A program made the translations under genes and the position numbers. This document shows, piece by piece, positions 27,756-31,580 of a DNA stretch of 31,580 nt. How positions within the stretch are numbered: the stretch's first letter is position 1; each line of letters opens with the position of its first letter. The DNA is from a virus (Duplodnaviria; Heunggongvirae; Uroviricota; Caudoviricetes). The stretch lies in the IMG/VR virus record IMGVR_UViG_2700989363_000008, positions 1 through 31,580 of that record. One strand, given 5' to 3'. The notes beneath the pieces are model-generated. The model saw only the letters and a list, made by a program, of their open reading frames with translations, made no database searches and was not told where the DNA came from.

Positions 27756-28016
27756 TTATGGTTGACTTGGCCACTCGATATCTGGATATAGTGATGTATC
27801 AACACGGTTCAGCAACACCCGATACTTCTTCCAGGCTTCCAGCAACGAGTTTTCTTCCTCCGTTGCGATCTCCAGATCTACAGCATCCTGAAGTGGCGCA
27901 ATATGCTCACTGAATTCCTGGATGTAGAACTGTGTGGTGACGGTCTTCCAGCCATTCGGCTCCTGCTGTATCGAAGCATACCAGGCTATTTCAATATCGC
28001 TATGCTGCGGCAGCAT
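27756..28016 (-). CDS. Tail fibre assembly protein-like short ORF (86 aa; C-terminal Tfa domain only)
   Basis: C-terminus ...[34 protein letters not shown] parallels the C-termini of the two full-length Tfa proteins at 30114-31203. Its 3' ~50 bp is duplicated at 28835-28885. Confidence 0.5.
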
Positions 28017-28072
28017 TTAACCCCTTGTAATTCATCGCCATAATTGATTTAATTCACAAATAAAACTATAAT

Positions 28073-28741
28073 ATGGTGAAATTAATGAAAAAAAACACAG
28101 ATGATGGGGCTAAAATTTACACACCACTTACCCTAAAGCTTTATGACTGGTGGGTTTTGGGAGTATCAAATCGGCTTGCATGGGGATGTCCTACAAAGGA
28201 ACACCTTCTTCCACACTTTCTGGAACATTTAGGTAACAACCATCTGGATATTGGTGTTGGAACTGGGTTTTACCTTACTCACGTACCTGAGAGTAGTCTG
28301 ATATCTTTAATGGATTTGAACGAAGCTAGCCTGAACGCGGCATCTACAAGGGCTGGGGAATCAAAAATTAAACATAAAATTAGCCATGATGTTTTTGAAC
28401 CTTATCCCGCGGCGTTACATGGTCAATTTGATTCCATTTCCATGTTTTACCTTCTTCACTGCCTGCCTGGAAATATATCTACAAAAAGCTGTGTAATACG
28501 CAATGCGGCGCAGGCCTTAACTGATGATGGAACTCTATACGGAGCCACAATTCTTGGCGATGGAGTTGTGCACAATAGCTTCGGTCAAAAACTGATGCGC
28601 ATTTACAATCAGAAAGGCATCTTTTCAAACACAAAAGATTCCGAAGAAGGCTTAACACATATACTCTCAGAGCATTTCGAGAATGTTAAAACCAAGGTTC
28701 AAGGTACTGTAGTAATGTTTTCCGCTTCAGGGAAAAAATAG
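28073..28741 (+). CDS. Class I SAM-dependent methyltransferase (222 aa), cargo gene
   Basis: Motif I-like LDIGVGTGF; start 28073 or 28085; AT-rich; followed by a strong 11-bp-stem hairpin (28749-28781). Substrate unknown. Confidence 0.6.
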   Translation: MVKLMKKNTDDGAKIYTPLTLKLYDWWVLGVSNRLAWGCPTKEHLLPHFLEHLGNNHLDIGVGTGFYLTHVPESSLISLMDLNEASLNAASTRAGESKIKHKISHDVFEPYPAALHGQFDSISMFYLLHCLPGNISTKSCVIRNAAQALTDDGTLYGATILGDGVVHNSFGQKLMRIYNQKGIFSNTKDSEEGLTHILSEHFENVKTKVQGTVVMFSASGKK

Positions 28742-28804
28742 CATCCAACCGCAGCACGTTCTTGCTTAAGACGTGCTGCGGCATAATCCCAATGATTACT
28801 CCCT

Positions 28805-29146
28805 GACAGGGTTCGTAGGCCACTCAATATCAGGTGCAGTTGATGTATCAACACGGTTCAGCAACACCCGATACTTTTTCTAGGCTTCCACCACCAGCAC
28901 GACAAGATGCCGCATACAGTGCCCCAGTCAGTCCAGTTTTCAGACAACCAGTGCGTCACCTTTTTGAAGGCGCTTTAAAGCACGTTTTAATCCAGGTCGG
29001 CCTGTCCTTGTTCCGCTTAATTTATCTTCAAATATTTGTTCATATCCTGCACAAACAAGAGCGTTTCGTTGCAGGTCTGTATTCTGGTCATTTGTTGATA
29101 CCCTTACATAGCCAATCAGCACGCTGAATCTCCCGTCCAAAAGCAC
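28805..29146 (-). pseudogene. Serine DNA invertase (Pin/Gin/Cin/Hin family) remnant, inactivated by nonsense mutations and fused to a tfa 3' fragment
   Basis: 28940-29146 encodes MLLDGRFSVLIGYVRVSTNDQNTDLQRNALVCAGYEQIFEDKLSGTRTGRPGLKRALKRLQKGDALVV, near-identical to the invertase N-terminus as recalled. The frame then hits TGA where Trp is expected (WKLDRLG) and a second TGA, and runs into ...[13 protein letters not shown]..., a duplicated tfa end carrying TAG. Confidence 0.75.
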
Positions 29147-29172
29147 AAATCATGCCATGCAGGCCAGAAACC

Positions 29173-29202
29173 GCCATTATCTAAAACCTCGGTTTACGAG
29201 AA
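29173..29202. other. gix/cix/pix-like crossover site at the left boundary of a tail-fibre invertible segment
   Basis: CCATTATCTAAAACCTCGGTTTACGAGAA matches the Mu gix site (reverse complement CCATTATCCAAAACCTCGGTTTACAGGAA, recalled) at nearly every position. The tail-fibre frame is interrupted by TAA inside the site, as expected for the 'off' orientation. Confidence 0.7.
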
Positions 29203-30112
29203 CTCGGCACAAGCGGGGAGAAAATACCGTTACTCAGTACAGCGAATACCTGGACTAATCGACAAACATTCAGCGGTGGCCTTTCTGGTGAACTATCCGG
29301 CAATGCTTCTACAGCTGCAAAATTAAAAACTGCCAGGAAAATAAGCAATGTGGCTTTTGATGGTTCCTCCGATATCACATTAAAAGCAAGTCATGTTGGT
29401 GCGTTTGCCTTAGGGAAAACAGGAAGCACCGTTGCGAATGATAAAGCAGTTGGATGGAACTGGAGTAGCGGAGCCTATAACGCAACTATTAGTGGTGCAT
29501 CAACGTTAATTATTCATTTTTATATGGGAGAAGGAAGTTGTCCTGCAGCTCAGTTTCGGATTAATTATAAAAATGGCGGTATTTTTTATCGTTCAGCCCG
29601 TGATGGTTATGGTTTTGAAGCCGACTGGTCCGAATTTTACACCACCAGAAAACCTTCAGCAGGAGATGTTGGTGCACTGCCGTTATCTGGTGGTCAACTG
29701 AATGGTGCACTGGGTATCGGAACATCCAGTGCTCTTGGCGGTAATTCGATTGTATTGGGTGATAATGACACGGGCTTTAAACAAAAAGGCGATGGTAATC
29801 TGGATGTTTATGCTAATAACGTCCATGTTATGCGCTTTGTCTCCGGAAGCATTCAAAGTAATAAAACCATAAATATTACGGGACGTGTTAATCCCTCGGA
29901 TTACGGTAACTTTGATTCCCGCTATGTGAGAGATGTCAGACTTGGCACACGAGTTGTTTAGACCATGAAGAAAGGCGTGATGTATGAAAAATCAGGCCAT
30001 GTAATCACGGGGCTTGGTATTATCGGTGAAGTCGATGGTGATGATCCGGCAGTATTCAGACCAATACAAAAGTTAATTAACGGAACATGGTATAACGTAT
30101 CGCAGGTATAAT
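29185..30112 (+). pseudogene. Tail fibre variable C-terminal segment (Sv-like), carrying an in-frame amber codon at 29959-29961
   Basis: Frame open from the crossover site (…GTSGEKIPLLSTANTWTNRQTFSGGLSGELSGNASTAAKLKTARKI…) to TAG at 29959, then continues in the same frame for 50 codons ending ...[18 protein letters not shown]. The minus-strand variant ends ...[18 protein letters not shown] without interruption. Confidence 0.65.
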
Positions 30113-30113
30113 C

Positions 30114-30647
30114 ATGCAGCATTTAAAAAACATTGTCGCAGGTAATCCAAAAACCGTTGAACAATACCAGCTAACAAAGAATTTTGATGTTATCTGGTTA
30201 TGGTCCGAAGATGGAAAAAATTGGCATGAGGAATTAAAAAACTTTCAGGAGGATACAATAAAACTGGCTTACACAGTTGAGGGAATAATTATTGCTATAG
30301 ACAAGGATGTATCAGCAATTAATCCAGAAGGTTTAAGTGTCGTTGAGTTGCCTGATATTACAGCAAATCGCCGGGCTGATATTTCGGGCAACTGGATGTT
30401 CAAAGATGGTGCGGTGATAAAGCGAACTTATACCGAGGAAGAGCAAAGGCAACAAGCGGAAAATGAAAAGCAGAGCCTGCTGCAGCTCGTCAGGGATAAA
30501 ACCCAGCTGTGGGACTCTCAGCTACAGCTGGGCATCATTTCCGATGAGAATAAACAAAAATTAACCGAGTGGATGCTCTATGCGCAGAAGGTTGAATCCA
30601 CAGACACCTCCAGCCTGCCAGTAACGTTTCCCGAACAACCAGAATGA
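30114..30647 (+). CDS. Tail fibre assembly protein (Tfa/U-like, 177 aa)
   Basis: [45 protein letters not shown]... is a typical Tfa N-terminus; follows the tail fibre variable segment. Confidence 0.85.
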
Positions 30648-30650
30648 GAG

Positions 30651-30682
30651 AAGGCCCGCTATCGGGCCTTAATTTTTATTCA
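30651..30682. terminator. Bidirectional terminator between the convergent tfa genes (AAGGCCC-gctatc-GGGCCTT + T-run)
   Basis: 7-bp GC stem followed by taatttttatt on the plus strand. Confidence 0.6.
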
Positions 30683-31203
30683 GGCTTTTGTGGCCATTCA
30701 GGATTTGCCGTATCCACACGGCTGACCAGAACACTGTAGCGTTCCCATGCTTCCAGTCGTGTGCGTTCCTCGTCTGTTGCCATATTCAGCCTGACAGCTC
30801 GTTCCAGCGGCTGGATGACTGATTCAGCTTCGGAAAGCAATGCGGCCTTTTGTGATTCGGCCTGTTGTTGCAGTTCCTGTTCTGTATATTCCCTCTTTAC
30901 TACTTTACCATCCAGAAACATCCATTTTCCGTTATTGTCTGCGTGACGATTTGCCGTAATATCAGGAACTTCAACTATGCTTAGCCCTTCAGGATTAATA
31001 GTTGAAACGTCTTTACTGACAGCAACGATGATGTTGTTCTCATCGTAAGCAATTTTTATGGTGTCTGGCTGAAAATTCTTTTGTTCCTCATACCAGTTTT
31101 TGCCATCTTCGCAAAAGAGCCATACCACGCCCGCTTTTTTAGTTAGCTGGTATTGTTCCGGTGTTTTCGGATTCCCGGCCTTAATATTTTTCAGGTGCAT
31201 CAT
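30676..31203 (-). CDS. Tail fibre assembly protein, alternative copy (Tfa'/U'-like)
   Basis: [45 protein letters not shown]... is paralogous to 30114-30647 and inverted relative to it. Confidence 0.85.
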
Positions 31204-31204
31204 C

Positions 31205-31580
31205 TTAAACACTCCCCACGTTGTACCATATTCCCCCAATCAATTTCTGAATTGGCCTTCTGGCAACAGTGTCGACAATATCATCCGCATTGCTGTTAAT
31301 TGCGGCTGTTAAAACATAACCTGACGCATCGCCAAAGCCGTAGTCGCGCCATACGTTTTTATATTCAATGCTGCCAAGACGAATATCCCGAACGACATGA
31401 TTATGCAGCCATGTGCTTAACCAGTTGTTTTCCCACACTGAACCATAAATATCGCCACTAGACGCAACTTGCGCACCACTTCCCAGCGCAAATTGAGGTA
31501 GCCTGAGTTTAACGGACACTCCTTCCTGAAATAGAATGGCATCAGAAGGAGCTAATAATGAGCAGAAAAACCCAACGTTA
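31205..31580 (-). CDS. Tail fibre, alternative variable C-terminal segment (Sv'-like), 5' part beyond the window end
   Basis: Minus-strand frame open from the window end to the stop at 31205; ends ...[19 protein letters not shown], paralogous to the plus-strand copy. Confidence 0.7.

Follow-up and report, generated by a model that had tools for sequence, protein, structure and literature searches.

Invertible tail-fibre switches of the Din family have been textbook examples of phage variation since the 1980s. In these systems a segment of approximately 3 kb between two inverted 26-bp sites is turned around by a serine invertase, with help from Fis bound to an enhancer within the gene for that invertase. 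The orientation decides which of two C-terminal tips, each accompanied by its own tfa chaperone, is attached to the single constant N-terminal part of the fibre. The Fis-dependent enhancer lies within the 5' part of Din invertase genes. A module with a truncated invertase that has its crossover sites and inverts was already described in 2014 for Phi4 of EC958 (E. coli ST131), where both orientations of the segment were present in the PacBio reads of one culture and the authors proposed action in trans (Forde 2014, PMC4134206).

We analysed a stretch of 31,580 nucleotides from a virus record, referred to here as the window, and found at its right end a switch for side tail fibres, of the invertible Din-family kind (Gin/Cin/Pin type), that very probably survives as an inert relic. 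The remainder of the window is of the N15-like linear phage-plasmid type: its late genes are lambda-like and include terminase, Nu1 and lysis genes, and beside them are a protelomerase, a telRL palindrome, SopAB and a large RepA. These N15-like annotations rest on relatives with 95–98% identity. The core of the palindrome, CCATTATACGCGCGTATAATGG, is at positions 25125–25146. The sopB gene ends at 27723, and the following features lie beyond it.

27728–27750: hairpin terminator after sopB, terminator-like on both strands, which closes the partition module of the N15-like phage-plasmid
27756–28016, minus strand: 86-aa hybrid C-terminal fragment of tfa, matching Caudo_TAP profile positions 75–130
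28044–28072, plus strand: promoter-like site (TTGATT, 17-nt spacer, TATAAT) directly upstream of the methyltransferase ORF, named for its consensus match alone (10 of 12 positions)
28073–28741, plus strand: class I SAM-dependent methyltransferase, intact ORF of 222 aa (Pfam Methyltransf_12/23/25/11)
28818–28893, minus strand: remnant of a second tfa 3' end, a direct repeat of 27769–27844, with TAG at the tfa Trp codon
28894–29146, minus strand: serine invertase pseudogene (translations; Pfam Resolvase)
28953–29033: putative Fis-dependent recombinational enhancer, its position and exact coordinates predicted from homology to Mu gin
29177–29202: invertase-proximal gix-like crossover site of 26 bp, TTATCTAAAACCTCGGTTTACGAGAA
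29185–30111, plus strand: fibre C-terminal variant, silent and lacking a promoter, 308 codons long (translation; Pfam gp37_C match)
30114–30647, plus strand: intact ORF of 177 aa for the tfa chaperone that belongs to the silent cassette (Caudo_TAP, E 5e-34)
30651–30670: hairpin between the convergent tfa genes, a terminator-like site
30676–31203, minus strand: intact ORF of 175 aa, with its ATG at 31203, for the tfa chaperone of the second cassette (Caudo_TAP, E 8e-37)
31205–31493, minus strand: last approximately 95 codons and stop of a second fibre variant (99.7% match; PHROG tail-fibre families)
31494–31580, plus strand: left end of IS600 (IS3 family), with inverted repeat TGAGGTAGCC... and the orfA ATG at 31558

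The window was scanned with the Mu gix sequence, allowing up to three mismatches, and this query agrees exactly with both annotated G-segment boundaries in the Mu record. The site at 29177–29202 matches Mu gix at 23 of 26 positions and is the sole match (none was expected from 100 shuffles); no second crossover site was found in the window at this threshold. A Din segment is bounded by two such sites in inverted orientation, and the intact relatives all carry paired sites 2.9–3.2 kb apart; the window has one. Together with the six bases upstream of it, the site is identical to the published Phi4_3prime site of EC958 (Table 3, PMC4134206). The same site occurs in relatives, and the L003 coordinates map to c1487865..1487890.

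The invertase next to this site is a remnant. Residue 1 of Gin aligns at 29122, with a GTG upstream at 29146, and the Gin/Pin-like stretch runs down to approximately 28894. Homology is kept from residue 1 to approximately residue 77 only, and Pfam Resolvase covers the N-terminal part alone (profile positions 2–69 of 145). Neither the oligomerisation helix nor the DNA-binding domain is left, so that the full-length serine invertase adjacent to a Din segment, with its catalytic domain, E helix and C-terminal HTH, is not found here, and a tblastn search with Gin revealed no further invertase-like sequence in the window. In the comparison with Gin, a TGA stands at the W61 position (28942–28940) and a second TGA at the R65 position. 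The remnant runs in frame into a tfa 3' end, which itself carries a TAG. The junction HLVVLV|VEA(W/*)KKY and the R65 TGA are common to the window and its relatives: the same truncation junction is present in five chromosomal relatives, and the junction together with the R65 TGA is found in EC958, NCTC86, OZ040035 and CP025859. These sequences suggest that one ancestral truncation lies behind the shared junction.

For the enhancer location we relied on PMC3378877, in which Fis sites are placed inside the gin coding region, approximately 550 bp before mom begins, and on the title of Kahmann 1985. The putative enhancer at 28953–29033 is identical to Mu gin in 77 of 81 nucleotides, and over gin nucleotides 1–178 as a whole the identity is 173/178 (97%). 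The cis elements on the invertase side, namely the site and the presumed enhancer, appear from their sequence to be well preserved.

Two fibre C-terminal cassettes, each with a tfa gene, occupy 29185–30647 on the plus strand and 31493–30676 on the minus strand, and both tips are damaged, one by a TAG and the other by IS600, which cuts it short. The plus-strand tip has an in-frame amber codon at 29959–29961 where the near-identical copies in NCTC86 and OZ040035 (98.8% identity) have CAG, and it also has a private in-frame deletion of 3 nt. Chromosomal copies are annotated with the same split ORFs, of 203 aa and 48 aa. We rejected programmed read-through of the TAG, since one C-to-T substitution separates it from the expressed copies and the cassette that holds it is silent and has no promoter. 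The minus-strand tip (31205–31493) matches the fibre genes of many plasmids and chromosomes, and this homology ends exactly at 31493. The adjoining IS600 end matches annotated IS600 copies at 100% (91/91) and 98.9%, and pCP301 annotates IS600 ORF1/ORF2. The terminal inverted repeat and the orfA start place the sequence in IS600, of which the first 87 nt alone lie inside the window; the window stops within the element, and the minus-strand open frame that reaches its end is read-through into IS600. The genomes NCTC86 and OZ040035 also contain near-identical inverted repeats of approximately 745 bp, which could support RecA-type inversion.

On the other side of the invertase remnant is a methyltransferase ORF (28073–28741) that is flanked by the two tfa 3' ends, which form a repeat of 76 nt with 86% identity (27769–27844 versus 28818–28893, repeat family D1). 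The ORF is oriented against the direction of late-gene transcription and is a moron gene; the same methyltransferase unit is present in the lambdoid phages 2G7b and PhiR26_1 and in EC958. It corresponds to phrog_2132 (PHROG annotation: function unknown) with an E value of 8e-157. Its matches in the PDB are weak (E ~1e-3), to small-molecule O-methyltransferases, UbiG and JHAMT, and there is no NCBIfam match above cut-off. Thus neither Pfam, which gives a generic class I assignment, nor NCBIfam, PHROGs or the PDB gave an informative functional match for this conserved moron. As read from the sequence, the ORFs of the methyltransferase and of the two tfa genes are uninterrupted.

A search with the ORF that spans the IS600 junction led us to near-identical chromosomal copies. 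Positions 27913–31580 are 99.8% identical, with seven differing positions, to a trp-adjacent prophage remnant in eight chromosomes of approximately 4.8 Mb, one of which (CP109775.1) has been described as Shigella sonnei (PMC10579285). These copies carry the same TAG, the same 3-nt deletion, the exact IS600-fibre junction and its ORF, and the amber-split ORFs. They show an IS600-associated rearrangement, with neither a target duplication at IS600 nor fibre homology beyond it, and in all eight no second gix-like site was found within 10 kb on either side, even with up to six mismatches allowed. In CP109775.1 the DNA behind IS600 holds the lysis genes. By analogy with these copies, the partner site of the present copy is probably absent.

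Whether the module truly sits on a phage-plasmid is uncertain, and the join may have arisen by genuine recombination or as a chimera made in assembly. In a five-way alignment, positions 27756–27912 match N15-like plasmids and the sequence from 27913 onwards matches the chromosomal prophage remnant. Identity is 98.3–98.6% to the plasmids on the left and 99.8% to the chromosomes on the right, and the change occurs between adjacent bases. The hybrid 86-aa tfa product that results was found only in this draft contig in a search of the whole assembly collection, and no record among 72,556 plasmids, 50,697 phage records and 5,426 complete E. coli genomes has the same arrangement with at least 80% of the region covered. 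The exact SopB is found in many N15-like plasmids, whose fibre ends are unrelated. The uniqueness of the hybrid, the abrupt switch of best match, the lack of a covering plasmid or complete E. coli genome and the fact that tfa 3' ends are multi-copy repeats all favour an assembly or scaffolding chimera, in which the sequences up to 27912 and from 27913 are not contiguous in the cell and the trp-adjacent remnant was mis-joined through the repeated tfa 3' end. We regard this as a serious possibility that falls somewhat short of an even chance. The parental sequences share at most 6–7 identical bases at the junction, however, which is too short for a de Bruijn mis-join, and we judge an error of that kind unlikely; a scaffolding or gap-closing artefact could still have produced the join. 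Recombination within conserved tfa ends is, moreover, the usual route of exchange for such modules. A genuine recombinant is a reading that we hold tentatively, at a level clearly below even: within the conserved tfa 3' end, an N15-like phage-plasmid would have swapped tail-fibre ends with a defective prophage of the chromosome, or would have integrated at that point. If it is true, the recombinant imported a switch relic broken by IS600 along with a methyltransferase moron, and an exchange between phage-plasmid and chromosome has been caught in the act. The locus illustrates how tfa 3' ends serve as joints for recombination, by which morons and fibre cassettes pass between phage-plasmids and prophages of the chromosome; the analysis also points to a contig in a public draft assembly that may be chimeric.

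Truncation of the invertase is not sufficient to account for an inert module. The ST131 genomes JJ1887 and 4/1-1 have 100% identical flanks around a precisely inverted segment of 3.1 kb, and the exchange is confined to the 12-nt sequence ACCTCGGTTTAC of the crossover site (the gix core). RecA-type recombination was rejected as the source of this change in orientation, because exchange within 12 nt of the site core indicates site-specific recombination. Annotations across a spread sample of genomes show tip B in two states: joined to the N-terminal part of the fibre, or standing alone as a silent fragment. A dead invertase in cis does not by itself freeze the module, because the segment of EC958 Phi4 still inverts with a truncated invertase. 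A first-pass annotation of this DNA had reasoned from the dead invertase to a frozen switch, an inference that fails given the two orientations in Phi4 (PMC4134206) and the inverted ST131 pair.

Two other accounts of the switch can be weighed against this background. In one, the segment is an orphan that remains active: its partner site lies beyond IS600 and it is flipped in trans by the Din-family invertase of another prophage, as in EC958 Phi4. Modules of this family do invert in the absence of an invertase of their own, as the Phi4 reads and the ST131 pair indicate, tip B occurs in both annotated contexts, the site is the same as Phi4_3prime, and the first 178 nt of gin are as close to Mu as noted above. 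However, the eight near-identical copies lack both a second site within 10 kb and a target duplication at IS600, both tips are broken so that flipping would give no functional change of host range, and the remnant is the only invertase-like sequence in the window. We consider this account very unlikely. The other, which we find hardly credible, is that of the first-pass annotation: a switch frozen by nonsense codons in the invertase, with an intact and expressed minus-strand variant and a second site just past the end of the window. Much of that annotation is sound. The switch class was correctly named as a decayed one of the Mu-G/P1-C type, with an invertase pseudogene and an amber-interrupted silent variant. 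The gix-like crossover site, the two TGA codons, the TAG in the plus-strand fibre, the duplicated tfa ends and the methyltransferase cargo between them were all found again. The N-terminal part of the invertase is retained and, as had been stated, fused to a duplicated tfa 3' end, but the lesion goes beyond nonsense mutation, the gene being truncated after approximately codon 77. Likewise, there are indeed two fibre/tfa sets, but they are convergent rather than head-to-head, their 3' ends facing each other across the hairpin at 30651–30670. The minus-strand fibre, which had been called intact, is severed by IS600 at 31493/31494.

The reading that we prefer is the inert relic. The invertase would have been truncated after approximately codon 77 by fusion to the tfa 3' end of the methyltransferase moron unit, and stop codons would then have accumulated in the remnant. 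The silent tip would have acquired its amber codon by a change from CAG to TAG, and the tip on the expression side would have been severed by IS600. To judge from the near-identical copies in chromosomes, the partner site and the constant part of the fibre are probably no longer adjacent. We infer this order of events from the features present. With lesions in both tips, a truncated invertase and a probable separation from the partner site and constant part, no fibre would be made and no inversion would be possible. The copy does look inert, and we attribute this to the amber codon, to the break made by IS600 and to the partner site having probably been lost, beyond the invertase alone. Against inertness, the window ends 87 nt into IS600, and in this contig the element may simply have inserted into the fibre gene, with the remainder of that gene and a second site lying behind it; should there be a partner site, an invertase resident in the cell could flip the segment even now.

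That a dead neighbouring invertase does not equal a frozen segment matters for annotating and assembling such loci. The intact versions used for comparison were Mu, CP088505 and CP148365. The Mu G segment with Gin, like the P1 C segment with Cin and the e14 P segment with Pin, has the same order of tip, tfa, inverted tfa, inverted tip, crossover site and invertase. In addition to the likeness in site and invertase 5' end, the two tfa genes are approximately 80% identical to those of Mu at the DNA level. Mu differs in having an intact Gin of 193 aa, two identical sites and a functional S/S' pair; in the window one site is seen, invertase homology ends at approximately codon 77 and both tips are disrupted. 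Among N15-like elements, NZ_CP148365.1 has an intact switch and resembles the window at 95–97.5% in blocks running from terminase/Nu1 via Q, repA, telN and sopAB to 27764, and in both the tail-fibre end comes straight after sopB. However, in NZ_CP148365.1 an intact invertase of 184 aa follows sopB directly and the stf is full length (945 aa), whereas the window has a decayed module of the chromosomal type. The trp-adjacent defective lambdoid prophage of S. sonnei (e.g. CP109775.1, CP023645.1) is 99.8% identical over 27913–31580, but its left flank consists of Rha/Ash genes, IS1 and trpA where the window has the sopB of an N15-like plasmid. Phi4 of EC958 shares the 26-bp site with its six upstream bases, the fusion junction of truncated invertase and tfa, and the methyltransferase between tfa 3' ends, with 98.3% identity over positions 27769–29945. 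Phi4 differs in that it keeps both crossover sites and inverts, and a full-length fibre gene is present in 4/1-1 and JJ1887. In the window, by contrast, the tip on the remnant side is another mosaic (tip A, with the TAG), and IS600 interrupts the second tip. The location differs too: Phi4 lies in the chromosome at ompW/trp, and in the window the module is joined to an N15-like phage-plasmid.

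From 27769 onward the window carries a unit widespread in E. coli and Shigella; over 27769–29945, ST131 and many other genomes have a counterpart of 98.3% identity in lambdoid prophages, at their ompW/trp or potB ends. The window is the entire draft contig CXFL01000041.1 of GCA_001258255.1 (31,580 bp), and its part up to about 27,900 is an N15-like linear phage-plasmid. The features are as follows.

Phage-plasmid arm: terminase, Nu1 and lysis genes
1252–3177, minus: terminase large-subunit gene
16901–20884: RepA, 1327 aa
23031–24944, minus: protelomerase
25592–26758: sopA
26758–27723: sopB
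28073–28741: class I SAM methyltransferase ORF, intact, 222 aa, between two tfa 3' ends
Immediately left of the crossover site, minus: invertase remnant, Gin residues 1 to about 77 by alignment
29185–30111, plus: fibre C-terminal variant, opening right of the crossover site, with TAG at 29959–29961
30114–30647, plus: tfa
30651–30670: hairpin between the two tfa genes
31203–30676, minus: second tfa
Right of the second tfa, minus: second fibre tip
31494–31580: IS600 left end, matching annotated copies at 100% and 98.9%, inverted repeat TGAGGTAGCC..., orfA ATG at 31558

Between telN and sopA lies CCATTATACGCGCGTATAATGG (25125–25146), an exact telRL-type palindrome core; the contig reads straight through this telomere-resolution site. 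Contigs L016–L021 (about 94 kb, N15-like plasmids with identical SopB) are assembled as mirror-image dimers, J, lom, stf, sopBA followed by sopAB, stf, lom, J, and look like assembly read-through of hairpin telomeres. The left end of our contig (1–300) lies about 1.25 kb past the terminase large-subunit gene; our guess is a break in a late-gene repeat common to other lambdoid prophages, as at the IS600 end. The close relative NZ_CP148365.1 matches the window in blocks of 95–97.5% identity up to 27764. In contrast to the window, it carries an intact 184-aa invertase directly after sopB and then a complete invertible fibre region. It is also missing about 1.6 kb (4129–5742) overlapping a mechanically listed 373-aa ORF without a Pfam match (4819–5940, minus, TTG start). 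At 9631–10274 a toxin-antitoxin-like pair is formed by a Gp49/RelE-like ORF and, after it, an HTH ORF; the relative is annotated with a RelE/ParE toxin pair at the matching position.

In N15-like plasmids with the same SopB, the match to the window extends to 27866–27912 and enters their own tfa, or a neighbouring gene, at its 3' end. Against the copy of the module in a trp-adjacent chromosomal prophage remnant, the window differs often as far as 27912 and rarely beyond it. The change from one pattern to the other falls at 27912/27913, a point at which the two parents have only 6–7 nucleotides in common, and the hybrid 86-aa tfa fragment was found in this contig only. The join may be a true recombinant, tfa ends being the usual joints of fibre mosaics, or a chimera of scaffolding or gap closing.

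The gix-type site, TTATCTAAAACCTCGGTTTACGAGAA at 29177–29202, is the sole match in the window to Mu gix at up to three mismatches, and 100 shuffles gave none; in the Mu record, the two annotated ends of the G segment each match the query exactly. The crossover site that the first-pass annotation had described as nearly identical to Mu gix is real. The two TGA codons and the fusion to a tfa 3' end that it read in the invertase are likewise present, and alignment with Gin places the TGAs at W61 and R65. Nonsense codons alone do not describe the damage, however. Homology ends at about residue 77, beyond which the remnant continues as the final ~25 codons of a tfa, including a TAG; the gene is thus truncated, not only interrupted by nonsense codons. 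Pfam Resolvase covers profile positions 2–69 of 145 only, and the oligomerisation helix and DNA-binding domain are absent. Because the junction HLVVLV|VEA(W/*)KKY and the R65 TGA are common to all compared copies, the comparison points to a single ancestral truncation in the module family.

The tfa 3' end at 28818–28893 is a direct repeat of 27769–27844 (76 nt, 86% identical), and the two flank the methyltransferase ORF. This METHYLTRANSFERASE unit (tfa fragment, methyltransferase, tfa fragment) also occurs at the ends of lambdoid phages with no invertase there, e.g. 2G7b and PhiR26_1. The protein is assigned to phrog_2132, a PHROG family of function unknown, and its only similarities are weak ones to small-molecule O-methyltransferases; Pfam and NCBIfam profile searches gave no DNA-methylase family match. 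A promoter-like site (consensus match) lies upstream. The -10-like hexamer before the gene (28072) is TATAAT in the window and TATAAC in the chromosomal copies and EC958.

The fibre/tfa sets, described initially as head-to-head, are instead convergent, as in Mu S-U/U'-S'. The reported in-frame TAG of the plus-strand variant stands at 29959–29961, where NCTC86 and OZ040035 have CAG (stretch identity 98.8% and 98.3%). The minus-strand variant had been called intact. However, its fibre-gene homology (99.7% in many records) ends exactly at 31493 and IS600 begins at 31494; the variant is reduced to about 95 codons, and the frame that stays open up to the window end does so by chance, reading on into IS600. 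In NCTC86 (L007, 5294–6040 and 8283–7540) the two inverted fibre variants have about 745 bp in common, counted inward from the crossover site, and so do those of locus L006. These arms are near-identical within a genome, with genome-specific SNPs in both copies, and suggest gene conversion between arms.

The ORF across the IS600–fibre junction has exact copies in many assemblies, eight ~4.8-Mb chromosomes among them; one of these, CP109775.1, is described in PMC10579285 as Shigella sonnei. Positions 27913–31580 differ from these chromosomal copies at 7 positions (99.8%), and both have the TAG (split 203-aa and 48-aa ORFs), a 3-nt deletion and the IS600 junction. In the chromosomes the module adjoins Rha/Ash genes, IS1 and trpA, and the far side of IS600 abuts lysis genes. 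Since these copies have one site only (no second gix-like site within ±10 kb), no fibre homology on the far side of IS600 and no target duplication, the partner site and constant fibre part have been lost from around them through a rearrangement associated with IS600. In the chromosomal copies (L025, 8772–10030 and flanks) the 3-nt flanks of the IS600 next to the fibre tip differ (AAC and ATT) and the far-side DNA is unrelated, which indicates IS-mediated deletion or rearrangement, not simple insertion. Contexts beyond IS600 differ in loci L027 and L029. The contig ends inside IS600, and by parsimony the window's copy would likewise lack the partner site and constant fibre part. With presumably a single site, no invertase, and tips that are amber-interrupted in one case and severed in the other, the switch would neither flip nor make fibre.

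That a dead invertase means a frozen switch was an over-reading. The EC958 copy of the module is prophage Phi4, whose published Phi4_3prime site (c1487865..1487890) is the window site plus its six upstream bases. The Phi4 invertase is severely truncated, yet both orientations of the 3106-bp segment occurred in PacBio reads of one culture, and Forde et al. proposed that another invertase, perhaps that of Phi1, must be acting in trans (PMC4134206). The ST131 genomes JJ1887 (L013, 5272–8390) and 4/1-1 (L014) have 100% identical flanks around a precisely inverted 3.1-kb tail-fibre segment, adjoined in both by the same truncated invertase pseudogene. Inner half-sites are swapped and outer half-sites unmoved; the exchange is confined to 12 nt, ACCTCGGTTTAC, of the site, a signature of site-specific recombination, and homologous recombination was rejected on this ground. 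Across a spread sample of genomes sharing a 100% identical tip, annotation gives it either as a silent fragment or as fused to the fibre N-terminus. By comparison of genomes, the JJ1887/4/1-1 inversion and the tip annotations support, independently, the inversion reported by Forde et al. The retained 5' part of the invertase matches Mu gin nt 1–178 at 97% identity, a region containing the enhancer's Fis sites (PMC3378877; title of Kahmann 1985), so the cis requirements for inversion in trans are plausibly kept.

The first-pass annotation thus recognised the system and most of its lesions, but missed the IS600 break and made too much of the dead invertase. Relative to Phi4, it describes a more decayed version of a module already in the literature, and little in the element is new.
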